Assembly: GCA_964596525.1 (NCBI GenBank)
Contig: CAZQUL010000001.1
Coordinates: 268,830 to 332,829 of the forward strand
Length of the DNA: 64,000 nucleotides
Source of the DNA: an uncultured Gammaproteobacteria bacterium
GTDB lineage: Bacteria > Patescibacteriota > Patescibacteriia > Magasanikbacterales > GWA2-37-8
Direction: 5' to 3'
The notes beneath the pieces were generated by a model. The model was not told where the DNA came from and searched no databases. It saw nothing but the letters and a program-made list of their open reading frames with translations. Shown piece by piece: positions 4,549 to 58,088 of this stretch (position 1 is its first letter; every line of letters begins with the position of its first letter). A program made the position numbers and the translations under genes.

Positions 4549-4554
4549 ACGTAA

Positions 4555-4580: not shown

Positions 4581-4587
4581 CTATCTC

Positions 4588-7470: not shown

Positions 7471-7581
7471 AGATAAGCCTAGTAAATAAAGCGTCCGGCT
7501 TGGGGAGCCTTTCTCCTGCCCCGCAACCCGACGTAGACAGAGTATAGCACACCAAAAAAACTACCAGTAGTGGTTTGCAAA

Positions 7582-7733: not shown

Positions 7734-7766
7734 CCCAAAGCCACCCTCTCCTACGGGGCGGCGGAT

Positions 7767-9212: not shown

Positions 9213-9307
9213 GACATACCCCTTGGTACGTTGTTTACTGCAGTGGCCTGAATACTCAGACCATCAAGGCTTCCTTTTAATAATAAGAAAACCTTGTGAT
9301 CAAAACA

Positions 9308-11363: not shown

Positions 11364-11526
11364 AGATACAAGACGCTTGAAATGACTGGAATGACTTTAG
11401 TATACCAGCCCAACCAAAAACACCGACGCGCAGTCGATGTTTAGAGAAATTGTACAGCGTGAAAAAATGTGCGCAAGGCTTTGGTGTGGACAAGAAATAC
11501 ATGCGCAGTTACAGCTTGACAAAATG

Positions 11527-11555
11527 ACGTAAAATAGCTATACTTTGGAGTTATT
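11527..11555 (+). promoter_or_regulatory. sigma70-type promoter (TTGACA-17-TATACT)
   Basis: Consensus -35, 17-nt spacer and TATACT -10, about 80 nt upstream of the ATG at 11638. Confidence 0.5.
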
Positions 11556-11637
11556 TCTGGAGAACGATTGCTGTCTTGGGCACCTGTATCTCTGGTGTCA
11601 AAGCTCATCAACCGTTCAGACTACGGAGGAACAAACC

Positions 11638-12474: not shown

Positions 12475-12548
12475 CGCACCTTCCCGCCAGATATCAAGCC
12501 GAGCACTCAGTTGCTCGGTTTTCGTTTTCTTTGTACGCTAGTTGCACT

Positions 12549-13382
12549 ATGCCCTCCCCTACCCTGCGTGAACTCAGAAAATTCCAGCGAACGGTTTGGG
12601 ATTTTTATGACAAAAATAAACGCGCCTTCGCCTGGCGCGAGACGACGGATCCGTACCAGATAACGGTGTCGGAAATCATGCTGCAGCAAACGCAGACCGA
12701 GCGAGTGGCAAAAAAATTCCCGGAATTCTTGGCAGCGTTTTCGACCTGGAAAAAACTTGCCGACGCTCCGCTCCCCGACCTTTTACGCGTGTGGCAGGGC
12801 ATGGGTTACAACCGCCGCGCCATCGCGCTTCAAAAAATCGCAGTGCGCGTAGTGAACGAATTTGAAGGACAGCTTCCCAACAATCCGGAAATACTCGAAA
12901 CGTTTCCCGGCATCGGACCCAACACCGCCGGTTCCATCTGCGCCTTTGCCTTCAACGCGCCGACGGTATTCATCGAAACCAATATTCGCGCGGTATTTCT
13001 GCATCATTTTTTTGCCGATCAAACCAAGGTGCACGACAAAGAATTACTGCCGATCGTAGAAGCCGCGCTCGTTACCGAACGTGCGCGTGAATGGTACTAC
13101 GCGCTTATGGATTATGGCGTGTATCTTAAAAAACTCCACAAAAATCCCGCACGGCGCAGTGCGCACCACGCGCGACAATCCGCATTCGAAGGTTCGGACC
13201 GGCAAATCCGGAGCGGAATTTTGAAACTGTTATTAAAAATGACAGAGGCGTCGCTTGAAACCATTTTTGGAAACTTTCCCGATACCGACAACGAGCGCGT
13301 GGAGCGTTTGCTTGGACAGCTGGTACACGAAGGCTTTGTAGCGAACGAAAAAGGCATTTTTTGCATCCGTTCGGAAAAATAA
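12549..13382 (+). CDS. HhH-GPD superfamily DNA glycosylase (MutY/Nth-like N-terminal domain, no Fe-S cysteine cluster)
   Basis: ITVSEIMLQQTQTERV...GMGYNRRA...FPGIGPNTAGSICAFAF...IETNIRAV aligns with the helix-hairpin-helix and Gly/Pro-Asp region of EndoIII/MutY. No C-x6-C-x2-C-x5-C cluster at the C-terminus. No catalytic Lys in the GIGPNTA motif, so probably monofunctional. Confidence 0.7.
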   Translation: MPSPTLRELRKFQRTVWDFYDKNKRAFAWRETTDPYQITVSEIMLQQTQTERVAKKFPEFLAAFSTWKKLADAPLPDLLRVWQGMGYNRRAIALQKIAVRVVNEFEGQLPNNPEILETFPGIGPNTAGSICAFAFNAPTVFIETNIRAVFLHHFFADQTKVHDKELLPIVEAALVTERAREWYYALMDYGVYLKKLHKNPARRSAHHARQSAFEGSDRQIRSGILKLLLKMTEASLETIFGNFPDTDNERVERLLGQLVHEGFVANEKGIFCIRSEK

Positions 13383-13437
13383 AAAGGAGGCTGGAAATTC
13401 CAACCTCACTGTGGGGGCGAATATGCGCCGTAAAATG

Positions 13438-13632
13438 CTAGCGCGCGGAGAAGCTGCGGCGGGGCAGGGTTTCAACGGCCGTGATCAGCTCGTTGCAGCT
13501 ATAGCCGACGATCCCATTGATAATGAGGAATAGAAGTGCGATGCCCGCTTTGGACAGCGGGCGATTGCGCGAAAACGATTCGTCGTCAGGCCTAGACGGT
13601 TCTTTAGAAACTCGAAACGAAGACATGTACAC
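13438..13632 (-). CDS. possible small membrane protein (64 aa)
   Basis: GGAGGTG RBS 6 nt upstream of the ATG. One TM segment, AGIALLFLIINGIVGY. Confidence 0.35.
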   Translation of the reverse strand: MYMSSFRVSKEPSRPDDESFSRNRPLSKAGIALLFLIINGIVGYSCNELITAVETLPRRSFSAR

Positions 13633-13687
13633 CTCCAGGGCAGGATACTACGTGTTTTTTTGCGTTTCGTCAAGGTTTAAAGGCGCA

Positions 13688-13722
13688 AAACTAAAAGCAA
13701 ACGACCGGCGTTGAGCCGGTCG
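13688..13722 (-). terminator. rho-independent terminator
   Basis: cgaccggc-gttga-gccggtcg hairpin; a T-rich tract follows on the minus strand, downstream of the 13754 gene. Confidence 0.6.
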
Positions 13723-13753
13723 GGAGGAGCGCTCGCGTGTAGCGGCGAGCGTA

Positions 13754-14947
13754 TTAGATCTTACGGAAGACGGTGTAGTGGATGGCAAGATCCTTCGTGC
13801 GAAACGCGGCAACGGTTCGCCTGAATATCACCCGATCACCGTGACGAGGGCTTTTTTCTGTCAGCTGCCTCATGTTGTACAGAAAAATCGCCTCACCCAC
13901 GACGACGATCGCTTCGAAGATGGGCGGTCCCCCTTCATCGCCCTCAACCTTGGTGATCTTTTCTACCGTACCCACGGCACACCCTGCTTTGGCCAGCCGC
14001 CTTTCCAAATACTCCTTAACGTTAGGCGGGAAATCAGCCCATCTCATGCAGGCCGTACGATACAACCCGACGAGATCCGTTTCACGATCGAGAAGTTCAT
14101 CAATGGCCACGGCTTCGTTTGGAGTTGCGGCGTGCGAACGAAGTGCCCACAGCCACAAGAGCGGCGCTTTCGCTCCCGCACGGCGGCGGACGTTATGAAC
14201 GATCTGCCACTGCGTCTTAATCTCGAGCGAGCGCAACTGACTGATCGTAAGTGATTCGACATCATCGAGCGACTGCACCGCATGTTCGATGAGTTGGCGG
14301 GCATTTTCTCCGGAACCGAGCCCGGCTCCGATGTAATCCGGGTAGATAAGGCCAATCTCCGGATGCTTGCGGAGCGCGACCTCAAACAGCGGCACGAGCC
14401 ACTCACCGGGGAACTTGTGAAAGTCGCACTGCGGCCAGTTCTTGATAGTCTCGACGATGCAGTCGGTCTTACCGCGCTCGGGCGTGACGCTCTCGAACCT
14501 CTGGCAGACGAGCGCGAGAACATGCTGACGGGGAATGCCGGCGTGAAGCAGCGCACCGACATGCTGCGCACTGCCCCAGCGCACGAAGTATTCGTCAGCA
14601 AATTCCTTCGCCGCGGCGGGCGTGGGGAAAAGGATCTTGAACGTGCGCTTGTCCGCCATATAGATCTGGAAAACGCGCGCCGCCGGATACGATCGGATAA
14701 ACGCGAGCGGGTCGTCGATAAGACCCTTAAAGTCATGGGGAAAGCGCCAGAGCACGTCACCACCGATCGAAAGATCGTGGGCATGAGCGCGTTCATCATC
14801 GGTCCAGATAGCTTCGATCATCTCCTCAACCGACAAGCCGCCGGTGATTAAAGCATTTTCCAATCTTTCGCGGAATTCTTTGATTTCCGAAGGGTTGGTT
14901 AACACGGTGGGTTGAGGCAGGATAGGAACGCACGACGTATCGTTCAT
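13754..14947 (-). CDS. hypothetical protein (397 aa, high GC)
   Basis: GAGG RBS. Start MNDTSCVPIL inside ORF 13754..15055. No recognisable motifs. Confidence 0.55.
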   Translation of the reverse strand: MNDTSCVPILPQPTVLTNPSEIKEFRERLENALITGGLSVEEMIEAIWTDDERAHAHDLSIGGDVLWRFPHDFKGLIDDPLAFIRSYPAARVFQIYMADKRTFKILFPTPAAAKEFADEYFVRWGSAQHVGALLHAGIPRQHVLALVCQRFESVTPERGKTDCIVETIKNWPQCDFHKFPGEWLVPLFEVALRKHPEIGLIYPDYIGAGLGSGENARQLIEHAVQSLDDVESLTISQLRSLEIKTQWQIVHNVRRRAGAKAPLLWLWALRSHAATPNEAVAIDELLDRETDLVGLYRTACMRWADFPPNVKEYLERRLAKAGCAVGTVEKITKVEGDEGGPPIFEAIVVVGEAIFLYNMRQLTEKSPRHGDRVIFRRTVAAFRTKDLAIHYTVFRKI

Positions 14948-15107: not shown

Positions 15108-15144
15108 TTCTATTCCCTAAAAACACAAAAGCCGTCACACGAGG
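15108..15144 (-). repeat. duplicated terminator (37-nt identical repeat, copy 1)
   Basis: ctaaaaacacaaaagccgtcacacgaggtaacggctg is identical to 16424..16460. On the minus strand it forms the gccgt..acggc hairpin plus T-run 3' of paralog A. Confidence 0.7.
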
Positions 15145-15211
15145 TAACGGCTGAGAATGAACAAAAGGGAATGAAAGTTGGAATCGAACTAAAGGCGAGA
15201 AGCGGTAGGCA

Positions 15212-16186
15212 CTACAGGTTCTCGACGAGGCAGGATCCCGTCTCGCCCATGTAGAGCGTGGTGCAGGGATCGCTCTCGAGCTGGCCGTCCTGGCGGAGGT
15301 AGGCCTTGCGGACCTGGACGTTCGCGCCGGTGCGCAGTACGGCGACCTCGTCGCCCGTACGACCCACGGTGTAGATCTTGTTGGGCGCGGCCGGAACCGT
15401 GACGCAGGTGCCCGTGGCGTTGCAGACGTTGACGTTACCACTCACGACGGTGAGGGCGATGAGGCCGAGGTAGACACGGCTCGTTCCCTTCTTCACGAAG
15501 GTGCCGCTGTCCGTCCGATCGAAGGCGTAGGGCGCGTTCCAAGAGAGGGAACGCGGGTCAGCGAGAGTCGACGGGCCCTGGACGCACACGAGGGTGGGGT
15601 CGGTCATGTCGCGCACGGCGGAGCTGCACGGGATGATCGGGGCGACGTACGGGCAGCCGCGGCGGTTCGGATCCGGCGTGGCACCCTGCGCCTCGTCCGG
15701 GCACTGGTCGTCGGCATCCAGCACCCCATCCATGTCGCGATCCTGGGGCATCGGGGTCACGATGGGCATGTCGTTCTTGATGCCCAGGACGACCTCGTCG
15801 ATCTTCTTGAAGGTCCCCTCGAAGCCCGGCGTCGCCAGGTAGGCGCACCAGGCCGGAATGACCTGACCCTGCTCGATCCGGTAGACATACCGGATGTTAT
15901 GCTGGGCGGTGAGCTTCTCCAGACACTGGACCTGGAGCATCTTGTCACCATCCGGGCAGACGACCGCTTCGAACATGATGTCGGCTCCGTAGAAGCTGAT
16001 CCAGCCGCCGGTCTTGGCAGCCTCGGTGCCAGCCTTGTCCATCTTTTCCTGGATGTACATGCCGGCCAGGGAGCTGGGCTTGCCCTCGGTGCAGTAGCTG
16101 ATCTCGCGCTCCGACAGCAGTCCGCAGCCGGACACGAAGGAAGCAAGGCCAACAGCGGCGACCACAAGGCCCTTGGAATTCTTCAT
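15212..16186 (-). CDS. lipoprotein with a thrombospondin-type-3 / OmpA-like calcium-binding repeat (paralog A)
   Basis: AAGGAG RBS. Lipobox LASFVSGC. DRDMDGVLDADDQCPDEAQGATPDPNRRGCP matches DxDxDGxxDxxDxCP. Cys-rich. Paralogous to 16518..17522 and 43193..44119. Confidence 0.75.
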   Translation of the reverse strand: MKNSKGLVVAAVGLASFVSGCGLLSEREISYCTEGKPSSLAGMYIQEKMDKAGTEAAKTGGWISFYGADIMFEAVVCPDGDKMLQVQCLEKLTAQHNIRYVYRIEQGQVIPAWCAYLATPGFEGTFKKIDEVVLGIKNDMPIVTPMPQDRDMDGVLDADDQCPDEAQGATPDPNRRGCPYVAPIIPCSSAVRDMTDPTLVCVQGPSTLADPRSLSWNAPYAFDRTDSGTFVKKGTSRVYLGLIALTVVSGNVNVCNATGTCVTVPAAPNKIYTVGRTGDEVAVLRTGANVQVRKAYLRQDGQLESDPCTTLYMGETGSCLVENL

Positions 16187-16423: not shown

Positions 16424-16460
16424 TTAAAAACACAAAAGCCGTCACACGAGGTAACGGCTG
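16424..16460 (-). repeat. duplicated terminator (copy 2)
   Basis: Identical 37-mer 3' of paralog B. Confidence 0.7.
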
Positions 16461-16517
16461 GCAATGCAAAAGAGAATTCGAATCGGAATCAGAATGTACG
16501 TCGGTAGACGATGAGAG

Positions 16518-17522
16518 CTACAGTCCCGACGGGCGGCAGGAGTCGGTGATCATGTTGTCCAGCGTGGTGCAGACCATGCTCTTGGTCACGCCATCCTCGT
16601 AGTAGGCGATCCGGAACTTGGTACCGGCGACGTCCGGGCGGACCGAGACGTACTCGTCACCCGGACGACCGATGGCGAAGATGGTGTTGGCCTTGTTCGT
16701 GAACGAGCTGCAGACGCCGTTCGCGGAGCAGGCCTGGAAGGAGCCGCTCAGGAAGGAGCCGCCGCTGTCGAGGACGATGATGCCGGCGATGATGCGCTTG
16801 CCCTGGACCATCTGCCAGGTGCCGCTCGCGGCCTGATCGAAGGCGTAGGGCGCGGTCCACGAGGTGGTGCGCAGCACGCCGATCTTGGAGGGGTTCTGCA
16901 CGCAGGCGCGCGAGCCGTCATTGCTCCAGCCGAGCGCGCTGCACGTCTCGATGGGCATGGTCGTGCCCGGGCAGCCGCGGCGCATTTGGTCCGGGTTGGC
17001 ACCGGCCACGGTGTCGGGGCAGACGTCGTCCTGATCGCGCACGCCGTCCTGGTCACGATCCGGGCAGCCCTGGAGGGTGCCGGCCGTCATCGGGCACTGG
17101 TCGTGCTCACCGAGGTATCCGTCCTTGTCCGGGTCCGCGGCCGGGTTCATCGGATCGAGCGAGGCGATGACCGTCTGGATGTCCTGGTCGTTCGGGTGGG
17201 CCAGGCACGAGGTCGGCGCGCTCTCACCCTTCGTCACGCGCCGCACGAGGGGCGAGTACTCCGGGGTCGTACGGTTCCAGAGGCAGGCGCGCTGGTCGAG
17301 GACGTTCTTGTCCGAGCAGCACGCGACCGCGCCGGTCTTCATGGTCCAGACGCAGTAGCCGCCATCGGTGGCGCAGGCGGCGTTGCACTCCTTGGCGCTC
17401 TTCTCGTAGGCCGCGCGCTCGGGAGCGTTCCCGGGCATGTCGCAGAGATCAGCGGTGCAGCCATTCAGAGCCACCATGAAAAGCACGGTGAAAAGGCACG
17501 CAAGGCTTCGAGCGATGAACAT
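16518..17522 (-). CDS. lipoprotein with two TSP3-type calcium-binding repeats (paralog B)
   Basis: GAGAGG RBS. LACLFTVLFMVALNGC. DPDKDGYLGEHDQCP and DRDQDGVRDQDDVCPDTVAGANPDQMRRGCP. The C-terminal half aligns with paralog A (WTAPYAFD..SGTW...VLDSGGSF). Confidence 0.75.
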   Translation of the reverse strand: MFIARSLACLFTVLFMVALNGCTADLCDMPGNAPERAAYEKSAKECNAACATDGGYCVWTMKTGAVACCSDKNVLDQRACLWNRTTPEYSPLVRRVTKGESAPTSCLAHPNDQDIQTVIASLDPMNPAADPDKDGYLGEHDQCPMTAGTLQGCPDRDQDGVRDQDDVCPDTVAGANPDQMRRGCPGTTMPIETCSALGWSNDGSRACVQNPSKIGVLRTTSWTAPYAFDQAASGTWQMVQGKRIIAGIIVLDSGGSFLSGSFQACSANGVCSSFTNKANTIFAIGRPGDEYVSVRPDVAGTKFRIAYYEDGVTKSMVCTTLDNMITDSCRPSGL

Positions 17523-17610: not shown

Positions 17611-17639
17611 ATTATAGTCTTTTTTTATGATTATGTCAA
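17611..17639 (-). promoter_or_regulatory. consensus sigma70 promoter (TTGACA-17-TATAAT)
   Basis: Minus strand reads cTTGACAtaatcataaaaaaagacTATAATggcg, about 80 nt upstream of the paralog B start. Confidence 0.6.
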
Positions 17640-17676
17640 GAATATAACGGGATAAATGTTGCGGGAAGCACCAATT

Positions 17677-28594: not shown

Positions 28595-28680
28595 GTCGGT
28601 TCCTCCTGGCACATGGGCCGCGCGGATTTTATCAAAATTTTATCTCGAAATCAAGCCTTTTGTGGGATTGTAAAAACCCA

Positions 28681-28786
28681 TCATTGCGAGGAGGTACGAC
28701 GAAGCAATCCCTCGGTAATTCAGAGCTCACTCTTCTATCAAGGAGATTGCTTCGTCGCTCGTCTAACTCGCTCCTCGCAATGACGA
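28681..28786 (+). repeat. ~105-bp palindromic intergenic repeat, copy A
   Basis: Outer arms tcattgcgaggag / ctcctcgcaatga; inner arms cgacgaagcaatccc / ggagattgcttcgtcg. Similar to 36373..36476 (inverted) and 37965..38073. Confidence 0.75.
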
Positions 28787-30629: not shown

Positions 30630-30714
30630 TGCCCAGAGAGAGAATCGAACTCTCATGACCGTGAGGTCGCGGGATTTTGAGTCCCGTGCGTCTACCAATT
30701 CCGCCATCTGGGCC
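30630..30714 (-). tRNA. tRNA-Leu (anticodon CAA)
   Basis: Class-II cloverleaf: acceptor GCCCAGA/TCTGGGC, D-arm GCG..CGC, anticodon loop CUCAAAA, long variable arm CGACC-TCAC-GGTCA, T-arm GAGAG-TTCGATT-CTCTC, discriminator A. CCA is not encoded. Confidence 0.85.
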
Positions 30715-30791
30715 TAAAAGTTTGGGAGAAACTTCTAGCATTCTAGCCAACCGTTGGTGGTCTGTCAATTGTGTGCTAAAATGAACCTGCT

Positions 30792-31574
30792 ATGATTATC
30801 ACGGTCGTCAACCAAAAAGGCGGGGTCGGCAAAACCACTACCGCTGTTTCGCTCGCTGCCGGATTAGCCGAATCAGGCAAATTTGTCCTACTCGTTGATC
30901 TGGATCCGCAGGGCAACGCCACCTCTGGCCTTGGCCTTGCACCCGATGGAACCGGGCTCTACCACGCGCTTGTCGGCCTCTCTCCGCTTTCAACCACGGT
31001 GCTCAACACGCGCCATGATGGCCTGCGCGTTGTCCCGGCCACGCCCGATTTGGCCGGCGCCAACGTAGAACTCGTGAGCGTCGAGGGTCGCGAAAAAAAG
31101 CTCGCCGACGTACTCACCGAAGTGCGTCATGCCTACGACTACATCATCATCGACTGCCCACCGTCTTTGGGCATTCTTACTCTCAACGGCCTCATCGCCG
31201 CCGACCATCTTCTCATTCCAGTCCAGGCCGAATATTATGCACTCGAAGGCTTGGGTCAGCTTTTAAAAACCATTGAGATGGTCAAGCAGGTTAAACCGAC
31301 TCTTTCGCTTCTTGGCGCCGTCATCACCATGTTCGACGGCCGCAACCGCTTGTCCGAAGAAGTGCTCAACGAACTCAACACGCACTTTCCGAGCAAGATT
31401 TTCAAATCCATCATCCCCCGTACCGTGCGTCTCGCTGAAGCGCCCAGTTTTGGTAAAAGCATTTTTGAGTATGAACCCAACGGCAAAGGCGCCCGCGCTT
31501 ACCGCAGCCTGGTCGAAGAACTTTTGGCGCACGAGCAAGAACAGCAACAATCAGAACCTTCCCATTCCTCCTAA
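30792..31574 (+). CDS. parA: chromosome-partitioning ATPase ParA/Soj
   Basis: Deviant Walker A KGGVGKTT. Typical ParA length; sits upstream of parB. Confidence 0.9.
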   Translation: MIITVVNQKGGVGKTTTAVSLAAGLAESGKFVLLVDLDPQGNATSGLGLAPDGTGLYHALVGLSPLSTTVLNTRHDGLRVVPATPDLAGANVELVSVEGREKKLADVLTEVRHAYDYIIIDCPPSLGILTLNGLIAADHLLIPVQAEYYALEGLGQLLKTIEMVKQVKPTLSLLGAVITMFDGRNRLSEEVLNELNTHFPSKIFKSIIPRTVRLAEAPSFGKSIFEYEPNGKGARAYRSLVEELLAHEQEQQQSEPSHSS

Positions 31575-31616
31575 AATTAGCCTTTCTCGAGGTGTTTTAT
31601 TTATTTATCTCAGCAT

Positions 31617-32468
31617 ATGTCACTCGGCCGCGGTCTTGGCGCCCTCATCTCCACTCCGCCCCCTGTTCCTCCTGCTTCTCCCAAACCGGTGAGCGAACCG
31701 CCGCCCGCGGGCACGCGCGTGCTCGATATTCCGTTATCTCTTTTACACGCCAACCCCGAACAGCCGCGCCAGCATTTCGATCCAGTCGCCCTCGAAGAAC
31801 TAGCCGCTTCTCTCAAGGAACACGGCGTGTTGGAGCCGCTTCTCGTTAACGAAACCAAAAACGGCACGTACGAAATCATCGCCGGTGAACGCCGTTTCCG
31901 CGCGGCCAAGCTCGCCGGACTCACGACCGTTCCCGCGCTTGTCAAAAACGTCGCTCATGACCAGAAGCTGGCTATCGCCATCATCGAAAACGTGCAACGC
32001 CAAGACCTTAACCCCATCGAAGAAGCGTTTGCCTACCAACGCCTGATCGACGAATTCGATCTAACCCAAGAGCAGATCGCCAAGAAAGTGGGCAAAAGCC
32101 GCCCGGTCATTGCCAACACGCTGCGTTTGCTCGCGCTTCCCAAACCCATCCAGGCCGCACTCATCGAAAAAACCATTTCCATGAGCCAAGCGCGCACGCT
32201 TCTTGCCCTCAAAACCGAAACCGAACAGCTCGACATGCTCGCCTCGCTCCTTGGCAAAAAAATCACGGTGCGTGAACTGGAGCGTGAAGTAAGCAAGGGC
32301 AAACCTACGCCAGCTGCCAACCCAGCGATCCGCTACCTCGAAGACGAGCTACGCGCCAAGCTCGGTGCTAAAGTGCGCATCAACGCACAGGGCGGCATCG
32401 GCACGATTACGGTTTCGTTTTTTTCGGATGAAGAACTTGGTGATTTGGTGAAAAAGATTGTTGAATAA
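31617..32468 (+). CDS. parB: chromosome-partitioning protein ParB/Spo0J
   Basis: ParB-box GERRFRAA, HTH and a C-terminal dimerisation domain. Confidence 0.9.
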   Translation: MSLGRGLGALISTPPPVPPASPKPVSEPPPAGTRVLDIPLSLLHANPEQPRQHFDPVALEELAASLKEHGVLEPLLVNETKNGTYEIIAGERRFRAAKLAGLTTVPALVKNVAHDQKLAIAIIENVQRQDLNPIEEAFAYQRLIDEFDLTQEQIAKKVGKSRPVIANTLRLLALPKPIQAALIEKTISMSQARTLLALKTETEQLDMLASLLGKKITVRELEREVSKGKPTPAANPAIRYLEDELRAKLGAKVRINAQGGIGTITVSFFSDEELGDLVKKIVE

Positions 32469-32586
32469 ACGCTTTTTAAACCTTCAGTATTGACGCAAGG
32501 GGGTTTTTTTATTAGTATGTACTGTCGGAGAAGTCTCGTCTCTTCTCGACCAAAAGATCAACAAGACGAAGAAGGAGCTCTTTATA

Positions 32587-33216
32587 ATGACGCGGCACAA
32601 ACATGAACGCTTAGCGCTTTCGCACGAAATAGTAAAAAAGACTCTTCTCATTCTTCCACGTGATGAATACACCCCCAGTAATTTACATCATTATCTGCAG
32701 CGACTCGTCGAGCGTGGTTTCACCCTCGAAGAAAGTGATTCTACATTTTTCTTCCCCGTGCACCGGTTCGAAATTACTGATCGGTGCGTAGTGGCGGATT
32801 CGTTTGCTTTTCTCCTGCAGCATCAGACCAAAGGCGGGACGAGGATTCTCGACATAGTGAGCATACGTGACTTCGGGCTTCCACCCTACCGGGATCGCAG
32901 GCAATTCAACCCCTCCCGCCTTCTCATCACCGAACACGCGAAGCAGCGCTTTGCCGAGCGGCACCTTAACGAGGTCTTTAACTTCCCCAACAGCGTTCCG
33001 GATTCCGTCCGCCTCTGGTACATGCTCACGCAAAGCGCTACGGAAGAACTACCATCACTCACTGCCACCCTTCGTTCGCTACGGCATGATGAAGAGCCTA
33101 CGCGTTACTACCGAGTTCTGTACCCTACTAACGCCCGAAGTCGTTATCGCTTCGTGTTTGGGCCGCGTGAGAACGGTCGATTTCCGTTAAAAACCTTCGA
33201 GACCACCACCCGATAA
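32587..33216 (+). CDS. hypothetical protein between parB and dnaA
   Basis: 209 aa with no recognisable domain; followed by a terminator. Confidence 0.5.
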   Translation: MTRHKHERLALSHEIVKKTLLILPRDEYTPSNLHHYLQRLVERGFTLEESDSTFFFPVHRFEITDRCVVADSFAFLLQHQTKGGTRILDIVSIRDFGLPPYRDRRQFNPSRLLITEHAKQRFAERHLNEVFNFPNSVPDSVRLWYMLTQSATEELPSLTATLRSLRHDEEPTRYYRVLYPTNARSRYRFVFGPRENGRFPLKTFETTTR

Positions 33217-33217
33217 C

Positions 33218-33240
33218 GACCCCGTCCCCACGGGGTTTTT
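33218..33240 (+). terminator. rho-independent terminator
   Basis: ccccg-tcccca-cgggg hairpin followed by ttttt. Confidence 0.65.
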
Positions 33241-33244
33241 CCAT

Positions 33245-33288
33245 ACTTATCCACCTATTACCTGACTTATCCACAGGTTTATCCACAT
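33245..33288 (+). promoter_or_regulatory. three DnaA boxes upstream of dnaA
   Basis: cTTATCCACc, cTTATCCACAg and tTTATCCACAt within 44 bp, about 115 nt upstream of the dnaA ATG. Confidence 0.7.
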
Positions 33289-33401
33289 ATACCTGTCAAG
33301 CCCTAGAAATACGGAAAAAGCCCTCTTTTATCTTACAAACAAGTTGCGTATACTAGGCCTATCCACACCACGCACGCTTACTTGTCCACACTTTTTCCCC
33401 T

Positions 33402-34859
33402 ATGCTGACGAACCACGAAATCTGGCAGGCTGTTCTCGCCGAGCTTGAGCTCTCTATCTCGAAAGCCAACTTCAACACCTGGCTCAAGTCGACCGGCATC
33501 CTGTCGCTCCAAGACGGACAAGCAATCATTTGCGTGCCGAGCGCTTTTGCCAAAAGCTGGGTCGAGAACAAATACCACAAAACCGTCGTGCAATCCCTCG
33601 AACGCGTTACCGAGAAACCTATCCGCCGCGTAGAATACCGCGTCGGTAACTTTAAAGTCTTGAGCCAGCAGGCTGCCGCCACACCAACCCAACCATCGCC
33701 CACGCTCGAGTTCGGCGCCGCTACCATCGAAGAACCATCCTATATAGAAACGCCCGACCATACTCCCTCTTCGGATCCCTTCTCTCCCCCACCGCCCGAA
33801 CCGACGCCCACCACCACCTCGGGCAGCTTTGTCCTCAATCCCAAATATACCTTTGATACCTTTGTCGTAGGTAAAAGCAGCGAACTTGCCTACGCGGCCG
33901 CGCAAGCGGTAGTATCGCGCCCGGGCGTATCGTACAACCCGCTTTTCATCTACGGCGGCGTGGGTTTGGGCAAAACCCACCTTATCCAAGCCATCGGCAA
34001 TGAGCTCATGAAGCGCAAACCCGACATTGCCATCATGTACGTGAGCGCCGAAAAATTCTCCAACGATTTCATCGGTTCGGTAAAAGAAGGTACGGCCAAA
34101 CAGTTCCAGGACAAATACCGCCACATCGATCTTCTTCTCATCGACGATATCCAATTCATCGCCGGCAAAGATCGCACGCAGGAATCGTTTTTCCACACCT
34201 TCAACGAACTACACCAACAAAACAAGCAAGTTGTCCTCACCTCAGATCGTCCGCCCAAGGCCATTCCCGCGCTCGAAGACCGTCTCAAATCACGCTTCGG
34301 CTGGGGCATGATCGCGGACATCGCGCCACCGGATTTTGAAACCCGTACCGCCATCCTCGAGAAAAAATGCGCGGAGAAGAACTACCATCTCGATACACTG
34401 CTTTTGCAGGCCATTGCCTCGGCCGTGCAGAGTAACATCCGCGAACTTGAAGGCGCGCTCAACAAGGTCATCGTCTACCACGATCTCAAAAACACCGAAC
34501 CGACCGCGGAATCCATTAAAGCGCTTCTTTTGGGCAGCGCCGAAACCGGCGGCGGCAAAACTACTATCACAGCCGCACAAGTCATCGAGACCGTGGTGCA
34601 GATGTACAACCTCACGATTGATGAAATCGTCGGTAAAAGCCGCGAAAAAAAGATCTCCTTTCCCCGTCAGATCATCATGTACCTCTTGCGCCAAGAGCTT
34701 GGCATGTCATTCCCTTCGATCGGGAGCGAACTCGGCGGCCGCGACCATACGACCGCTATTCACGCCTATGAGAAGATCGCCGGCGAAGTGGAGCAAGACC
34801 CCAAACTCAAACAGGAAATCGATTCAATCAAACAACGGCTCTTTATCAATAATATTTAG
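33402..34859 (+). CDS. dnaA: chromosomal replication initiator protein DnaA
   Basis: N-terminal domain I, AAA+ domain (GGVGLGKTHL, Walker B LLIDDIQF) and C-terminal DnaA-box-binding domain. Confidence 0.95.
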   Translation: MLTNHEIWQAVLAELELSISKANFNTWLKSTGILSLQDGQAIICVPSAFAKSWVENKYHKTVVQSLERVTEKPIRRVEYRVGNFKVLSQQAAATPTQPSPTLEFGAATIEEPSYIETPDHTPSSDPFSPPPPEPTPTTTSGSFVLNPKYTFDTFVVGKSSELAYAAAQAVVSRPGVSYNPLFIYGGVGLGKTHLIQAIGNELMKRKPDIAIMYVSAEKFSNDFIGSVKEGTAKQFQDKYRHIDLLLIDDIQFIAGKDRTQESFFHTFNELHQQNKQVVLTSDRPPKAIPALEDRLKSRFGWGMIADIAPPDFETRTAILEKKCAEKNYHLDTLLLQAIASAVQSNIRELEGALNKVIVYHDLKNTEPTAESIKALLLGSAETGGGKTTITAAQVIETVVQMYNLTIDEIVGKSREKKISFPRQIIMYLLRQELGMSFPSIGSELGGRDHTTAIHAYEKIAGEVEQDPKLKQEIDSIKQRLFINNI

Positions 34860-34870
34860 GAAGTGATTTC

Positions 34871-34888
34871 GTAGGACGTAGGGAGTAG
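34871..34888 (+). repeat. solo copy of the CGTAGG..GTAGGGAGTAG motif
   Basis: cgtaggacgtagggagtag lies immediately 3' of the dnaA stop. Confidence 0.45.
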
Positions 34889-34911
34889 ACAAGGAAGGAC
34901 TGTTAATAATG

Positions 34912-35178
34912 GGTGGATAACCTGAGGACAACCGTCAATCCGGATGGGATAACTCGGTGCACAACAAGGAGCTCCATCCCCACCTTATCCCCGCTCCCCC
35001 ACCCCGCTTCTTCTTTTATCCCCGCACGGTAAAATCCATCCCCGTTCTGTCCCCGGCTCTTGGGGATAAAATAGTGCCATTCTTTGGCTAAAGGATAACA
35101 ATGTTCGTAACTATCCCCGGCGTCCACACCCCTTATTAGTATTATTATCTCTTTATATATAGATAATTAAATAACCCC
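34912..35178 (+). promoter_or_regulatory. putative oriC: DnaA-box cluster plus AT-rich unwinding element between dnaA and dnaN
   Basis: gGTGGATAAc, TGGGATAAC, TTATCCCCG (two copies), GGGGATAAA, AGGATAACA and CTATCCCCG, followed by ttattagtattattatctctttatatatagataattaaataa. Confidence 0.65.
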
Positions 35179-35182
35179 TGAT

Positions 35183-36301
35183 ATGAAATTTTCTTGCACG
35201 CACGATAATCTGCAAAGTGCCTTGGGAGTGGTTGCCGGTGTTGCGGGTAAGCATATCAATTTGCCAATTTTGGGAAACGTACTTCTCCGTGTCGATGCAC
35301 AGAAGGTGTCACTTACGGCAACAAATTTAGAAATAGCGCTTTCCACGTCGTTTCGTGCCAAAGTAGATGCGCCAGGAACCTTTACCGTACCAGCCAAGAC
35401 GTTTACCGAAACCGTAGGCTTTTTGACTGATGGCCCCGTAACCATTGAACTCGATGGCAGTGAACTGGTTATTCAGGCCGGAAAAACACGCACCAAACTC
35501 AAGGGTACGAGCGCTGAAGAGTTCCCGATTATCCCTGAATTACAAACCGGACGAAAACTTACGGTTCCCAAAGAACTTCTCAAAGATGCGTTTACTCGCG
35601 TATTGCCAGCGGTCGCGCGTACCGAAATCCGTCCGGAACTCTCCGGCGTATACTTTGGCGTCGGCGTACACGAGCGCAAAGGCATTACGCTTGCGGCAAC
35701 CGACAGCTTCCGTTTGGCGGAGCGTGTTATCCCACTCAACCTCCCCGAAGGTGAGGTGCCTTGGAGTGTTATAGTGCCGGGTAAAACCGCCCAAGAAGTG
35801 ACGCGGCTTTTGAGCGCGAGCGAAGGTGAAAGCGCTGAACTCACCTTAACCGAAACCCAGCTTGCGGTCGTGGTGGGTGAAACCGTGCTTATTTCACGCT
35901 TGGTAGAAGGCTCGTACCCCGATTATACGCAAATTATTCCTCGCCAGTTTTCAACCACGGTCACCTGCGCGGCTGATGCGCTCGGCAAAGAAGTGAAAGC
36001 TGCTGGCATCTTTACTACTTCAGGCATCAATGCGGTCGAAGTTACCTTCGCACCAGGGACGGGGGTGATGCAATTCGCTTCGGCCTCCACACAGGCTGGT
36101 GAATACCGCTCGGAATTGCCTGTAGAAGGCACGGGCGTCGACGTAAAAGTACTTTTGAGTCATCGCTACCTGCTTGATGGCCTCAGCGCGCTCCGGTCGC
36201 CTCGGGCGCAGTTTTCGGTGGTCAATGCCGATAGCCCGTGCGTGCTCTCGTCTCCTGAGGGTGATGGATTCCTCTACATCATCATGCCGATCCGACAGTA
36301 A
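35183..36301 (+). CDS. dnaN: DNA polymerase III beta sliding clamp
   Basis: 372 aa. Three-domain clamp pattern. MKFSCTHDNLQSALGVVAGVAGKHINLPILGNVLL start. Confidence 0.9.
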   Translation: MKFSCTHDNLQSALGVVAGVAGKHINLPILGNVLLRVDAQKVSLTATNLEIALSTSFRAKVDAPGTFTVPAKTFTETVGFLTDGPVTIELDGSELVIQAGKTRTKLKGTSAEEFPIIPELQTGRKLTVPKELLKDAFTRVLPAVARTEIRPELSGVYFGVGVHERKGITLAATDSFRLAERVIPLNLPEGEVPWSVIVPGKTAQEVTRLLSASEGESAELTLTETQLAVVVGETVLISRLVEGSYPDYTQIIPRQFSTTVTCAADALGKEVKAAGIFTTSGINAVEVTFAPGTGVMQFASASTQAGEYRSELPVEGTGVDVKVLLSHRYLLDGLSALRSPRAQFSVVNADSPCVLSSPEGDGFLYIIMPIRQ

Positions 36302-36372
36302 AATCGCTAGATTTAAAGAAAGAAAAGAAAAAAGCGTTGTTTTCTACAACGCTTTTTTGTATCTGGATTTAT

Positions 36373-36476
36373 CGTCATTGCAAGGAAGGAGTTAGACGGC
36401 GGACGAAGCAATCCCTATGTAGTTTAGAGCTCACTCCGCTATCAAGGGGATTGCTTCGCTATGCTCGCAATGACGA
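36373..36476 (-). repeat. ~105-bp palindromic repeat, copy B (inverted relative to copies A and C)
   Basis: cgtcattgcaaggaaggagttagacggcggacgaagcaatccc...ggggattgcttcgctatgctcgcaatgacg. gagttagac here is the reverse complement of gtctaactc in copies A and C. Confidence 0.75.
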
Positions 36477-36479
36477 AGT

Positions 36480-37440
36480 TTTTAGCTTCTCATACCTGGA
36501 AAATTCCTACAAAAACAGTAAACCCCAGAAGTGCGCAGGCTTCTGGGGTTGGCATTTCGTGGTTCTGGGCACGGGCCCGTGTCCAGAGCAGACGAAATGA
36601 GGTAGTGCCGCATCATGCGGCAGGTAAACTTTGTCGTCACAAAGGGGGGGTGATGTAGCGACGTAGGACACATCGCCAGATCTCCCCGCCTTTGTGGCGG
36701 TGATCCAGGCCGTCACCACTGCCAAGGAGCGACCTCGGCGCTTATCGCTGAGCGAACTCTTGATAAGCTAAATTGAGGCTTCCAAAGCGGTAGTTTACGG
36801 CGGACTGGCCTTCTCTCAAAAAGAGCAATCACTGAAGCCTGGTAGCTTCTCATGCTCTTTTTTGCTGAGGGTTACAGTTCCCGGAGGGTTGCAGGATGAA
36901 AAACCAAAGATCGGCGGTCTGGCGGGTAATGGCCCGCCACACGAGGCGAGAATGTTCGTACGTAGAAGCACAGCGTGTCGACGTCCGGACGCATCTTTTC
37001 TCTTCGGGTTGCCTAAGAGGAAAAGAGTGAGTTGGTCCTGGACTATGAAAGAGCGGGACACGCGAGAAAAATCTCGTAGGTGCGGTTCTTGTGGTTTGGC
37101 AGTTCCCAAGAAAGCTTATGCCGGTCGTAACTCAGAGAGTTGACTGGGCACTTTCACCGCTCCGCTCGTGAGTGAGTCGAAGGGTAGCGCGAGGCTTAGA
37201 GGGAAATGCACCAAGAAGGTGACACCCAGGTGCGGGTACGAAGGTCTCGTTGCTGCATCTGTGGACTGGATGGCTTTGATGTACCACGCGAGTCAAAAGT
37301 ACGAGCGCGACACGTGATCAGCGTGGGCGCATGATTCTGGAAACGACGCGTTTCGCAGAAAAACCGCAGGTGGTAAAGCGTATCAAAGCGGCCATGTGTA
37401 CATCCTGGCCGGGAGAAGGTCAGCCTGTCATGTAAAGAAC
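36480..37440. other. GC-rich, highly structured non-coding segment (candidate large ncRNA or degenerate element) with no credible ORF
   Basis: Perfect hairpin ccccagaag-N8-cttctgggg at 36523-36548. Palindromes cacgggcccgtg and tgccgcatcatgcggca. Only short, compositionally random ORFs. Contains a tmRNA-5'-like string at 37325-37350. Confidence 0.4.
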
Positions 37441-37740
37441 TTTCACAAACAACCACATGTATAGTTTAAGATTGTCCACAGTCATTGTCAACAACAGTGT
37501 ATACATTATGTCTTCACCGGTGATTTTTTGACTAAAATTAGACGAGAAAGAAACCACGAAGGTGAATACCCAGGAAGGTTTATGCACATAGTGTGGATAA
37601 GTAAGTGCATAAGTTGTTGATGAGGTGGTGAAAAAGGAAAGAAAAGGTTCTCTTTGTATAGAGTAGTGTATAAATATGTGGATGAAATCGAATAACTTTT
37701 TATTGTATGGTTGTGGATTAATTACGGAAGGTATTGTGAG
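37441..37740. promoter_or_regulatory. AT-rich region with four DnaA-box-like motifs (alternative/extended oriC candidate)
   Basis: TTGTCCACA at 37480, TGTGGATAA at 37592 (perfect), TGTGGATGA at 37658 and TGTGGATTA at 37705, within about 65% AT sequence. Confidence 0.5.
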
Positions 37741-37806
37741 TCAGCTCGACGTTGCCGTGTAAATAAAAACAAAACAACGGACTCCCAAAATCCGTTGCTA
37801 TGTTTG

Positions 37807-37878
37807 AGGTACCGGCGGGAATTGCACCCGCGCATAAAGGTTTTGCAGACCTCTGCCTTACTACTTGGCTACGGTACC
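37807..37878 (-). tRNA. tRNA-Cys(GCA)-like gene with atypical D- and T-loops
   Basis: Minus-strand cloverleaf: acceptor GGTACCG/CGGTACC, anticodon stem GAGGU/ACCUU, loop CUGCAAA, T-stem GCGGG/CCCGC, discriminator U73 (the Cys identity element). The T-loop is UGCAAUU (G55) and the D-loop has no GG. Confidence 0.4.
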
Positions 37879-37964
37879 GATTGATGTTTCGAGCTATCGA
37901 ACCGAGCGTATCATGAAGCGCGTATGAAGACAAGAAGGTTATTGGAAGTTTTTAGCACATCTTC

Positions 37965-38073
37965 CGTCATTGCGAGGAGGCACCCGACGAAGCAACCCCT
38001 CCGTAATTTAGAACTTACTCTTCTATCAAGGGGATTGCTTCGTCGTTCGTCTAACTCACTCCTTGTAATGACG
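37965..38073 (+). repeat. ~105-bp palindromic repeat, copy C
   Basis: cgtcattgcgaggaggcacccgacgaagcaacccc...ggggattgcttcgtcgttcgtctaactcactccttgtaatgacgg. Confidence 0.75.
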
Positions 38074-38128
38074 GGGAAAGAGTGTAAATTTTAAAAACCC
38101 CGTGGTGGGGTTTTGGCGGAAAGACACG

Positions 38129-38902
38129 CTAGGGCTGTGTGGCGAGAAACTCCGCGGTCGTGCCGCGGAAGTGGCGGTAGCGGTTGCTCTGCTCGGCCAG
38201 ACTGGTAAGGAGCTCCTGAGCGGCGGTGTGTTCCTTGGTGAGCCAGGTTGGGCTCAAGAACAGCTTGAGGAGCGCGATGAACCGATCATAGGGCACGATC
38301 CGATGATTGCCCTCGATACGCAGGGCCATCGAGTCTTCCAAGGTTTTCGTAAAAAATTCACCGGAGCTGATGTCGGTGGCCTGGACCGGTCCAAGCTCGG
38401 CTGCCGGCAGGAGCGTTTCGATATCGTCCGCCGACCATGCTGGGAGGCTAAGCGAGCTCATACGAGCGGCAATAACTGGATGCGTAATGCCGAGCTCCCA
38501 CGAGCCTGTGTCGAAAAACAGGTGGATGTGGCCGATGTAGCGACCAGCGGGTGAGACATCGGCACGGGGCGTTGTCGGATTGAAGAGCTCGCGCAACGAC
38601 TTCGACCAGATGGCGGTGTCTCCAGTGTCTTCGTAACGCTCATGGAGCATTCCTTCGAAAGTGGCGAGAACGTCGGTAGCGGCAGGGCGGTTGCTCTTCC
38701 AGCGGATCTCCGAACATTCTTTCAATCCCTCGCAGAGATCTTGAGCTACGGTTCCGGGTGACGGCCAGATGGCGAGATTGGCCAGCACATCGCAGAGAGA
38801 AGGCCGGAAGACGCGGTGGCTGTCCCAGCTGGTAGCCAAGAATGTGGTGGTACCGTTGGCAGCTTCAACGCCAAAAAATCCGATGATAATGAACGGTCCC
38901 AT
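38129..38902 (-). CDS. hypothetical protein (257 aa)
   Basis: AGGAGG RBS. No recognisable domain. High GC. Confidence 0.55.
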   Translation of the reverse strand: MGPFIIIGFFGVEAANGTTTFLATSWDSHRVFRPSLCDVLANLAIWPSPGTVAQDLCEGLKECSEIRWKSNRPAATDVLATFEGMLHERYEDTGDTAIWSKSLRELFNPTTPRADVSPAGRYIGHIHLFFDTGSWELGITHPVIAARMSSLSLPAWSADDIETLLPAAELGPVQATDISSGEFFTKTLEDSMALRIEGNHRIVPYDRFIALLKLFLSPTWLTKEHTAAQELLTSLAEQSNRYRHFRGTTAEFLATQP

Positions 38903-40055: not shown

Positions 40056-40266
40056 ACAGGTACGAAGTGATGATAAAAGGTGGTTTTGAGGACTTTTCTG
40101 ATTATACGAGTCGTAGATTAGCTAAAAAGCGATGTTTTGGCAACTACTATTTGAATATGAGGGTGGAAAGATGATTATCCCGTCGTATTATTGACATAAT
40201 CAGTAAAATCATATCTACTAGCTGCTGATAGTGGGTTCCTTTGAGAAAAATAAGGAGGAAGCGACC

Positions 40267-43192: not shown

Positions 43193-44119
43193 ATGATGAT
43201 TACTCGGATGATGTTGGCTGCTTTCGTTGTTTTTTACCTGTTTCTTTCGGGCTGCGGAGTAAGCACCATCTGTCACGAAGGCAAGGCAACCGAAGGGTTT
43301 GGCCGCAAGTATGAAGACCGGCTAACCCAGGGCATCAGCCAGTGCGCCACGACTGGCGGTTGGGTAGCCTACGACACGTGCTGCCCTGATGGCGAGAAGG
43401 ACGCGCAGATTGCGTGCCTGGAGCAGAAGCGGCAAGAGGGAAATGAGTATGTCCTGCGCATCGAGCTGGGGCAGACCATCCTGCCATTCTGCGAGTTCAT
43501 GGGAACCGCGGCCGGGAAGGCCTATGTCAAGACCATCGACGTCATCACCGGCATCAAGACCGACACGCCCATCGTCATCCCGACGCCAAACGACCGCGAC
43601 ATGGACAGTGTCGTCGATGCCGACGACCTGTGCCCGGACGAGGCGCAGGGCGCGATGCCCGACCCCAACAGGAAGGGCTGCCCGACTCCGACCACCCCCG
43701 CCGTCCGCTGCAGCGCCCTCGTCCGCGACATGGCAGATCCCACCACGGTCTGTGTCCAGGACCCCTCCACCTCCAGCACGATCCGCACCTACACCTGGGA
43801 CCAGGGAATCTTTGACCAGCCCGAGACGGGCATCATGGTGAAGAAGGGCACTGGCCGTGTCTTCAGCGGCATCCTCGTTCTCGACAACGGCGGTTCGTTC
43901 TGGACAGGCACCTTTGAGCTCTGTACCGTCCATAACGTCTGCACCGCCATCACCGGCAAGGACAAGACCGGCTACGCCGTGGGCCGACCGGGTGACTACT
44001 ACACCTCCGTCAAGGTCGGCTCGAGCGCCCAGGTCCGCTTGGTCTACATCCAGCCTAACGGCACCCGCCAGAGCGACCCCTGCGCCTTGATGAATGGGGT
44101 CTGCACTCCGCCGCAGTAG
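43193..44119 (+). CDS. lipoprotein with TSP3-type calcium-binding repeat (paralog C)
   Basis: AAAGGAGG RBS. MMITRMMLAAFVVFYLFLSGCG. DRDMDSVVDADDLCPDEAQGAMPDPNRKGCP. Aligns over its whole length with paralogs A and B. Confidence 0.75.
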   Translation: MMITRMMLAAFVVFYLFLSGCGVSTICHEGKATEGFGRKYEDRLTQGISQCATTGGWVAYDTCCPDGEKDAQIACLEQKRQEGNEYVLRIELGQTILPFCEFMGTAAGKAYVKTIDVITGIKTDTPIVIPTPNDRDMDSVVDADDLCPDEAQGAMPDPNRKGCPTPTTPAVRCSALVRDMADPTTVCVQDPSTSSTIRTYTWDQGIFDQPETGIMVKKGTGRVFSGILVLDNGGSFWTGTFELCTVHNVCTAITGKDKTGYAVGRPGDYYTSVKVGSSAQVRLVYIQPNGTRQSDPCALMNGVCTPPQ

Positions 44120-57809: not shown

Positions 57810-57984
57810 TTGAAAACTTTATACCCGTGTCTTTTGTCAGTTCTCGGTAAGTAAGATGTTTGTTGTCAGATGAAGGAAAGCATTATTGGCAGGTTTGTTA
57901 TATGTCTTTAGATATATTTAAAGTGCAATAGTATATACCTTTAGAAAACAATGTAAAGCGCACTCTTTTCCACAGTTTACCCCT

Positions 57985-58088
57985 GGTTATCCACAAACAG
58001 TTCAAAGCGCACATCAACATTTTGTATACACTAGTGTATACAAAATTTAGAATAATCACCAGGTTATCAACAGGAGTATCCACAGAGC
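57985..58088 (+). promoter_or_regulatory. DnaA-box cluster upstream of the dCMP-deaminase/dUTPase gene block
   Basis: gTTATCCACAa at 57987 (perfect), TTATCAACA at 58063 and GTATCCACA at 58076, 100-200 nt upstream of the ATG at 58194. Confidence 0.45.

Follow-up and report, generated by a model that had tools for sequence, protein, structure and literature searches.

We analyzed the 1.7-kb interval immediately downstream of dnaN in a 64,000-nt stretch of contig CAZQUL010000001.1 (hereafter the window; coordinates are positions within it unless another contig is named). In this window dnaA (33402-34859) and dnaN (35183-36301) are both on the plus strand, and just past the dnaN stop codon (36301) a hairpin between an A-run and a T-run at 36328-36358 forms the intrinsic terminator of dnaN, which looks bidirectional. 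Beyond it follow a palindromic repeat, a GC-rich block, an AT-rich cluster of DnaA boxes, a tRNA-Cys gene and a second, inverted copy of the repeat. A first-pass annotation made from the sequence had described the interval as a gene-free composite element, to be read as a large structured non-coding RNA (ncRNA), as a non-autonomous mobile element with a tRNA-like attachment site, or as the true oriC together with a degenerate ssrA. We confirmed that the sequence features it listed are all present; the term 'gene-free' holds for protein genes and fails for RNA genes, of which there are two. The best-supported account is that the GC-rich block is a previously undescribed minus-strand gene of ~950 nt for a structured ncRNA, a new candidate class, and that the two repeat copies at the block edges were inserted in the window lineage only. 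With a probability of roughly 0.7, the interval as a whole is a neighbourhood on the chromosome, at the replication origin, that a lineage of Patescibacteria has conserved, with two copies of a dispersed repeat inserted and the new ncRNA as its main content.

A candidate structured RNA gene downstream of dnaN

Neighbourhoods of related organisms were retrieved by way of DnaN homologues. A DnaN identical to that of the window is found on one 1.34-Mb NCBI contig and two Logan contigs, SRR11567528 and SRR11567520 being the samples that hold the window organism, and SRR28520271, DRR438530 and SRR14234076 samples of relatives; the next-closest DnaN proteins have only 55% identity, and the named ones among them carry a Magasanikbacteria or Patescibacteria annotation. 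The relatives that carry the RNA, whose DnaN is 53-55% identical to that of the window, are four distinct genomes on five contigs (L083/L084, L089, L091 and L092), so that the comparison set comprises five distinct RNA sequences, that of the window and those of L083, L089, L091 and L092. Within this relative clade the DnaN proteins (P0002, P0003, P0004, P0006 and P0007) are 74-86% identical among themselves, and a second DnaN search over 5.8 billion proteins found the clade with the RNA as only five DnaN clusters. All four relatives with sufficient downstream sequence have the same order, namely dnaN, a terminator, a GC-rich block of 600-700 nt, a DnaA-box cluster and a minus-strand tRNA-Cys, and in both L083/L084 and the window the next gene is ychF. 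The block of the window is homologous to theirs at nhmmer E values of 1e-16 to 1e-22 (one 131-nt alignment has 78% identity), and the RNA homologues are 607-698 nt long. A covariance model of the 3' core, searched over 97 sources (1.43 Mb), scores 141-205 bits in the RNA loci; no other locus among these sources gave a comparable full-length match, the remaining matches being weak plus-strand hairpin echoes in the same loci and a spacer in a CRISPR array on contig L090.

The candidate gene occupies 36510-37456 on the minus strand (~947 nt), a call made from its promoter, its terminator, its homologues, its folding score and the lack of any Rfam or open reading frame (ORF) match. A promoter scan placed a sigma-70-type promoter, TTGACA-17-TAAACT, at 37463-37491 on the minus strand, and at the homologous minus-strand position all five genomes have a perfect TTGACA as the -35 element, separated by 17 nt from a -10 element of the form TAnnnT, the relatives having TTGACA-17-TATAGT, TACTAT or TATTCT; in each region the RNA promoter was the sole or the best site, with 10-11 of 12 matches. 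The predicted first nucleotide of the RNA is the G at 37456, the sequence at +1 reading GUGGUUGU in the window, GUGAUCGC in three relatives and GUGAUUGC in L092. At the other end a terminator scan found a minus-strand intrinsic terminator at 36510-36550, an 11-bp stem followed by UUUACUGUUUUU, and a hairpin with a U-tract stands at the homologous end of the RNA in all five genomes, the U-tract past the hairpin being taken as the 3' end. This terminator is convergent with that of dnaN, which has counterpart hairpins in L083, L089, L091 and L092, and in the relatives only ~20-40 nt separate the two; since so few nucleotides leave no space for a plus-strand promoter between the dnaN terminator and the block, a plus-strand transcript was rejected.

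The interval has no credible ORF, as the first-pass annotation had stated: the longest from a start codon is 97 aa, stop-to-stop frames reach at most 123 aa, and none of these is conserved or has a Pfam match. Across the five homologues no ORF is conserved in frame, again with no match in Pfam; short peptide matches do occur among them, in shifting frames and on both strands, as nucleotide conservation alone predicts. A coding or pseudogene reading was rejected.

What is conserved is a fold. The GC-rich, hairpin-dense segment pointed out earlier, with the three hairpins named there, lies at 36480-37440 and folds much more stably than its shuffled versions: the minimum free energy (MFE) z score is -11.0 for the plus strand and -7.3 for the minus, as compared with -0.9 and +0.2 for coding controls nearby; the RNA of L089 scores -6.5. 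Conservation between the window and the relatives extends over ~100 nt at the 5' end of the RNA and ~330 nt at its 3' end, on either side of a variable central domain (36816-37388, minus strand) of ~570 nt in the window and ~370 nt in the relatives. The two conserved parts are joined by a long-range helix, P2, in which the 5' strand GGCUGACCUUCUC (37413-37425) pairs with the 3' strand GAGAAGGCCAGUCC (36802-36815), both on the minus strand, across 400-600 nt. The strands of P2 in the relatives are CGGAUUAACCUC/GAGGCUAGUCCG, and between them and the window we count two compensatory changes that are double and two that are compatible with wobble pairing, while one A-C mismatch is conserved; the pair probability of P2 is ~0.9 or more in four of the five single-sequence folds, and 0.6-0.95 over the window pairs. 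Immediately 3' of the 5' strand of P2 is the hairpin P3 (CGGCCA...UGGCCG; 37389-37411, minus strand), replaced at the same position in the relatives by a 6-bp hairpin of entirely different sequence, GCCGAC...GUCGGC.

The 3' domain consists mainly of two long minus-strand hairpins. P4 (36714-36795) has an apex, GCUUAUCAAGAG..GCUCAGCGAUAAGC at 36740-36768, that is nearly invariant in all five genomes; a kink-turn was considered for this apex and discarded, the pairing register being unsuitable. P5 (GUCACAAAG...CUUUGUGAC; 36636-36698), drawn from the alignment of the five sequences, comprises 26 pairs, of which 5 have changes on both sides. Over P4 and P5 together the five sequences have 91.8% of their cells paired, versus 37-47% when partners are slid, and 10 pairs have changed on both sides, versus 1-3 in the slid controls. 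Comparison with homologous regions, which the first-pass annotation had named as a check, thus finds P2 and P3 preserved as well as the 3' core, and gives modest evidence that the helices of the RNA are kept by compensatory substitutions. The structured-ncRNA option of that annotation thus gained support, now refined to a gene on the minus strand that has a promoter and a terminator to itself and is conserved in four relatives.

Several points weigh against this reading. The covariation is modest and cannot be assigned a proper significance, because there are five distinct sequences and four of them are fairly close to one another; the central domain is unalignable between the window and the relatives; and a tentative 5-bp helix, P1, that would pair the very start of the RNA with the 3' domain has one compensatory change but a pairing probability of essentially zero, and was dropped for want of thermodynamic support. 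As to strand, the minus-strand RNA is C-rich, it is the plus strand that folds more stably (z -11.0), and counts of G-U versus A-C combinations do not decide; given that neither fold stability nor these counts settle the matter, the strand call is based on the promoter, the terminator and the orientation of the CRISPR spacer described below. The distribution is also patchy: the block is absent behind dnaN in the sister lineage L085 and in the Magasanikbacteria-like genomes L086, L088 and L093-L095, which have ordinary genes there, and a DnaN scan of genome contigs returned distant relatives only (at most 41% identity), none with a homologue of the RNA by blastn, nhmmer or covariance model. Finally, the RNA gene is known here from its sequence, and the function proposed below is one that we infer.

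To our knowledge few large structured bacterial RNAs have been described, and each new class (OLE, GOLLD, ROOL, raiA) has raised new structural or biochemical questions. Genomes of the candidate phyla radiation (CPR), or Patescibacteria, are tiny and have scant non-coding DNA; that 0.6-0.95 kb near the origin of such genomes is kept for an untranslated RNA with a conserved fold therefore points to selection for an important function.

DnaA boxes and the possible roles of the RNA

DnaA boxes are more numerous in the window than expected, with 27 of at most one mismatch where 9.2 are expected. Five of these form the cluster at 37472-37720, with a perfect box at 37592-37600, in a stretch whose GC content is 0.35-0.40; the AT-rich stretch with DnaA boxes described in the first-pass annotation is thus borne out, with five boxes in place of the four claimed. 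Similar clusters occupy the same place in L083, L089, L091 and L092, and the sign of the GC skew changes at ~34-38 kb, which places the block in the origin region. The features by which an oriC is recognized, an AT-rich DnaA-box cluster near dnaA and dnaN together with a GC-skew switch, are found at 37472-37720 and are found equally for a cluster upstream of dnaA (33247-33390); the former is described here as a putative oriC sub-region or DnaA-regulatory region. Of the earlier suggestion of an oriC plus a degenerate ssrA, one half holds up, in that the boxes, the AT-richness and the GC skew agree with an origin sub-region; the ssrA half fails.

Other box clusters were also noted. The one at 33247-33390, just upstream of dnaA, has five boxes, two of them perfect; the dnaA-dnaN spacer (34860-35182) has many boxes of the TTATCCCC type; and two clusters lie far from dnaA, at 57966-58084 and 7582-7666. 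The origin could be bipartite, with parts on both sides of dnaA-dnaN. On the Logan contigs the dnaA-dnaN spacer is annotated with an ORF of 74 aa; this has no match in Pfam and is probably spurious.

One DnaA box of the cluster, TTGTCCACA at 37472-37480, lies inside the spacer of the RNA promoter. A DnaA-box-like 9-mer is found in the corresponding spacer of L089 (TTATCCCCA), L091 (TTATCCACC) and L083 (ATATCCCCA); L083 has two mismatches, the other three, the window included, no more than one, and L092 is without a box there. In E. coli the mioC and dnaA promoters are overlapped by DnaA boxes, and by analogy DnaA occupancy should modulate the RNA promoter and would probably repress it; the box thus offers a directly testable tie between replication initiation and an ncRNA. 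Just upstream of the -35 element, on the opposite side from a DnaA box, the sequence ACTAGTGTATACATT at 37494-37508 is a conserved motif whose core, TGTATACA, is palindromic; it recurs at ~7062-7078 and ~7198-7214 of L089 and similar sites are present in L083, L091 and L092, the second such motif of the relatives adjoining another DnaA box. It may be a regulator binding site or a second promoter.

This arrangement resembles the mioC and gidA transcription units of E. coli, for which the gidA unit of P. aeruginosa offers a further comparison (PMC13438810): the RNA promoter lies in or beside a cluster of DnaA boxes, one of which overlaps its core, and, as with gidA, transcription is directed away from the boxes. 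The difference is that mioC and gidA encode proteins, whereas here the product would be a long, structured RNA that is not translated and whose fold is conserved. In being a structured untranslated RNA of several hundred nucleotides encoded beside a replication origin, the candidate is also similar to ColE1 RNA II. Folding matters for RNA II as well; the plasmid RNA, however, is independent of DnaA boxes, is transcribed toward the origin and becomes the primer, whereas the candidate RNA would be transcribed away from the boxes, and a processing site of the RNase H type cannot be deduced in it.

We propose that transcription starts at about 37456, from the strong sigma-70 promoter (37491-37463) at the edge of the DnaA-box cluster, proceeds toward dnaN and ends at the intrinsic terminator (36550-36510) that converges on the dnaN terminator. 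The transcript, ~950 nt in the window and 600-700 nt in the relatives, would be closed by P2 around the variable central domain, with the long hairpins P4, bearing the invariant apex, and P5 following 3' of P2 before the terminator. DnaA at the promoter would tie synthesis of the RNA to the replication cycle, and the origin-proximal position would give its gene a high dosage; the tRNA-Cys is an ordinary neighbour, separately transcribed. Our best guess is a stable, DnaA-coupled RNA that would act in trans, probably as the scaffold of a ribonucleoprotein that recognizes the invariant P4 apex, and we favour such a function over a role in cis.

A role in cis would have transcription from the promoter embedded in the DnaA boxes mainly activate oriC, with the folded RNA secondary, either through negative supercoiling behind RNA polymerase, as for E. 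coli gidA, or through an R-loop or primer, as for ColE1 RNA II. Such a role is in keeping with a promoter placed inside the cluster of DnaA boxes, one of them in its spacer, with a GC skew that switches within a few kilobases, and with a block that adjoins dnaN and DnaA boxes in all five genomes. Origin activation, however, requires neither a transcript of 600-950 nt nor compensated helices, and the long-range helix over 400-600 nt, the invariant apex and the dedicated terminator are all unneeded for it. Further DnaA-box clusters upstream of dnaA and between dnaA and dnaN also count against it: because other clusters flank dnaA, that at 37472-37720 need not be the origin. We regard an origin element acting in cis as the chief alternative, though unlikely to be the main explanation; the cis and trans roles are not mutually exclusive.

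A CRISPR spacer, mobile elements and known RNA families

A scan of metagenomes with the invariant P4-apex pattern found no further copy of the RNA; the single match was the CRISPR spacer in L090 (Ga0154020_10005086), a contig with cas genes at 1750-9788 and a 51-repeat array at ~10200-14000. The spacer, one of 50 (L090 12938-12975, minus strand), has the P4 apex of the RNA as its protospacer and matches L089 at 38/38 positions, L091 at 32/33, L092 at 33/35 and L083 at 28/29; the place of the match within the RNA adds no weight, since the P4-apex motif was the search query. Genes for Cas10/Cmr2-like, Csx10-like and TIGR03986-family RAMP proteins adjoin the array, by which we assign the system to type III, III-D-like. 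Most named homologues of the RAMP protein come from Planctomycetes and other bacteria with large genomes, which makes a CPR bacterium an unlikely owner of the array. Type III CRISPR systems act on RNA targets. The repeat of L090 ends in ATTGAAAC, which we take to be the canonical 8-nt 5' tag of the CRISPR RNA (crRNA); read this way round, the crRNA is of the same sense as the dnaN strand and is therefore complementary to the minus-strand transcript, so that the spacer lends independent, if indirect, support to minus-strand expression of the RNA.

An exact type III spacer in a non-CPR bacterium gives an independent handle on expression of the RNA. The owner of the array may interact with this Patescibacteria lineage, and the spacer may in turn help to find organisms that interact with this uncultivated lineage. 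We advance more tentatively a wider proposal, that the RNA represents a new large-RNA class, structured and particular to one Patescibacteria lineage, encoded in the origin region and controlled by DnaA, that would serve either the control of replication or the cell cycle or the interface with a host, and that would be abundant or exposed enough for an unrelated bacterium, which may be a Planctomycete-like host, to have acquired a type III CRISPR spacer against the hairpin that is most conserved.

The same spacer, being an exact match of type III, could suggest that the RNA and the origin-like boxes are the remnant or cargo of a mobile element, an integrated satellite or plasmid-like unit beside the tRNA-Cys gene, the more so as the block adjoins the 3' end of a tRNA gene, has a patchy phylogenetic distribution and in the window is flanked by palindromic repeats. 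Spacers taken from foreign prokaryotic chromosomes are, however, common in nature (PMC12612501), and the spacer therefore does not show the RNA to be mobile. The block has no integrase nor any other ORF, the relatives lack the flanking repeats, and the synteny from dnaN to ychF is preserved across ~54% DnaN identity. Integration at the tRNA-Cys gene was rejected for lack of an attachment-like direct repeat: the tRNA (± 30 nt) and the dnaN-proximal end share no direct repeat of at least 10 nt in the window, L083, L089 or L091, and the one 10-mer shared in L092, TTTTTGATAC, is of low complexity and taken as chance. Phage, plasmid and viral collections (searched by blastn and by two viral-contig pattern scans) contain nothing similar except the tRNA, and a covariance model search found no second copy of the block interior in the window. 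We therefore hold a mobile remnant to be improbable, and the attachment site proposed in the first-pass annotation finds no support.

Even less probable in our view is that the RNA belongs to a known family missed by the models (transfer-messenger RNA (tmRNA), RNase P RNA, a group I or II intron, GOLLD, ROOL, OLE, signal recognition particle (SRP) RNA or 6S RNA), or that the block is a decayed protein gene, the latter opposed by the absence of a conserved frame and by peptide matches that drift between frames on both strands. The size and complexity of the RNA are within the range of known large RNAs, and a 26-nt string, GGGCGCATGATTCTGGAAACGACGCG, is present at 37325-37350 as reported earlier and has a likeness to the 5' end of tmRNA. 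This string, however, lies in alignment columns filled by the window alone, inside the variable central domain, and is antisense to the RNA transcript; ARAGORN found no tmRNA in the window, and tmRNA families are absent from the Rfam scan at E ≤ 10, so the degenerate ssrA falls away. That scan used Rfam 15 (4227 families), first with the gathering threshold and then, for 36200-38200, with E ≤ 10, taking in the region (36300-38100) singled out for it in the first-pass annotation, and returned the tRNA and chance sub-threshold matches only, one of which ('mir-2985') is hairpin P5; at E ≤ 1 over L089, L091 and L092 it likewise found no RNA family beyond tRNA and chance matches. The covariance models for RNase P RNA, group I and II introns, SRP, 6S, GOLLD, ROOL, OLE and HEARO were all unmatched in these scans. 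Comparison by eye with the consensus of tmRNA, RNase P, group II intron domain V, SRP and 6S gave no match, in agreement with Rfam, and an S-adenosylmethionine (SAM-I) riboswitch suggested by CUUAUCAAGAG was dropped, as just the letters of P1 and J1/2 agree and the four-way junction is absent.

Our searches of the literature brought up no earlier description of such an RNA. The closest known kind is that of the large 'ornate' bacterial ncRNAs of unknown function such as GOLLD, ROOL, OLE and raiA (PMC12286853, PMC5737381). Like these, the candidate RNA is 0.6-0.95 kb long, ORF-free and rich in helices, with a long-range closing helix, variable peripheral insertions, a promoter and terminator of its own, and an adjoining tRNA gene. 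GOLLD and ROOL are frequently adjacent to tRNA genes, and both have been studied by cryo-EM. Unlike them, it shows no similarity to an Rfam covariance model and belongs to none of these families; it is chromosomal, at a Patescibacteria replication origin and not in prophages; and it differs further in having a DnaA box in its promoter, a C-rich transcript and a distribution of five genomes only.

Palindromic repeats, the tRNA gene and other features of the window

The repeats at the edges of the block, identified by nhmmer and folding, are copy B (36373-36476, ~104 nt, termini CGTCATTGCAAGG...CTCGCAATGACG) and copy C (37964-38073). Their opposite orientation, reported in the first-pass annotation, is confirmed: they have 43-nt arms that are 86% complementary (nhmmer E values 7e-27 and 2e-32). 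A third copy, A (28678-28785), outside the block and 7.6 kb away, has the orientation of copy C, and each copy by itself forms a nested hairpin of great length (z -5 to -8, folded as DNA). Copy B sits between the convergent dnaN and RNA terminators at a site that is empty in all four relatives, and in L083, L089, L091 and L092 the repeat of the window is absent from either boundary of the block. Because the relatives lack them, a third copy lies elsewhere and each copy is a complete palindrome, the repeats are independent insertions of a dispersed MITE/REP-like family; weak relatives of the repeat occur in the Patescibacteria loci L005 and L041. Logan contig L081, which corresponds to 30668-37994 of the window at 99.97% identity and is from the same organism, stops inside copy C, as expected of a multi-copy repeat. 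The copies resemble REP, MITE and PATE repeats with GTCATTGCGAG...GAAGCAATCC termini in being intergenic nested palindromes of ~105 nt, dispersed, in either orientation and at assembly breaks, and differ from them in that no transposase or target-site duplication was identified. This type of terminus is widespread.

That copies B and C serve as the terminal inverted repeats of a composite element that mobilizes the 1.7-kb interior is scarcely credible, for all that they are mutually inverted and bracket the block: four relatives keep the interior without the repeats, copy A shows the repeat to be dispersed, each ~105-nt copy makes up a small element in full, where the composite reading would have it be one half of something larger, and L089 carries a different palindrome elsewhere inside the block. 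A false lead is thereby removed, in that the flanking inverted repeats delimit no mobile element and there is no degenerate tmRNA. The palindrome of L089 (~7320-7465), a MITE-like element whose termini are GTCATTTCGAGCGA...TCGGAATGAC, has the DnaA boxes on one side and the tRNA-Cys gene on the other, and was found in that one relative only; with it, the neighbourhood appears as a recurrent landing site for such repeats.

The tRNA-Cys(GCA) gene (37806-37878, minus strand; called by ARAGORN, 64.8 bits in Rfam) is followed by its own minus-strand intrinsic terminator at 37773-37799, found in the terminator scan. It has the cloverleaf, the GCA anticodon and U73, and lacks the canonical T-loop (U54-U55-C56), its T-loop being UGCAAUU, with G in place of the normally invariant U55; the D-loop, AGUAGUA, is without the usual GG, and an A13-A22 mismatch is present. 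This mismatch is typical of tRNA-Cys. The gene is 94.6% identical over 74 nt to that of L083/L084, and the relatives' tRNA-Cys genes occupy the same relative position on the minus strand (L083 10510-10582, L089 7567-7639, L091 3119-3191, L092 2587-2659). As the T-arm is identical in all four relatives, the odd T-loop is a conserved peculiarity and not decay; the tRNA-Cys-like gene with U73 and an aberrant T-loop of the first-pass annotation is thus a genuine tRNA-Cys, and its T-loop is presumably functional.

Elsewhere in the window, GC-rich repeats at 15650-15805, 16968-17064 and 43529-43684 include a 156-nt inverted pair, 78% complementary, 28 kb apart, and a 97-nt direct pair 1.3 kb apart; a 50-nt pair with 90% identity, at 15118-15167 and 16425-16474, also has a spacing of 1.3 kb. 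These GC-rich repeated segments point to a duplication of genes or domains. At 17622-17655 and 40175-40208 there is an inverted pair of 34 nt with 85% complementarity, in which TTGACATAATC stands beside TTATCCCG; it has the look of a promoter or operator motif that two unrelated genes share upstream of them.

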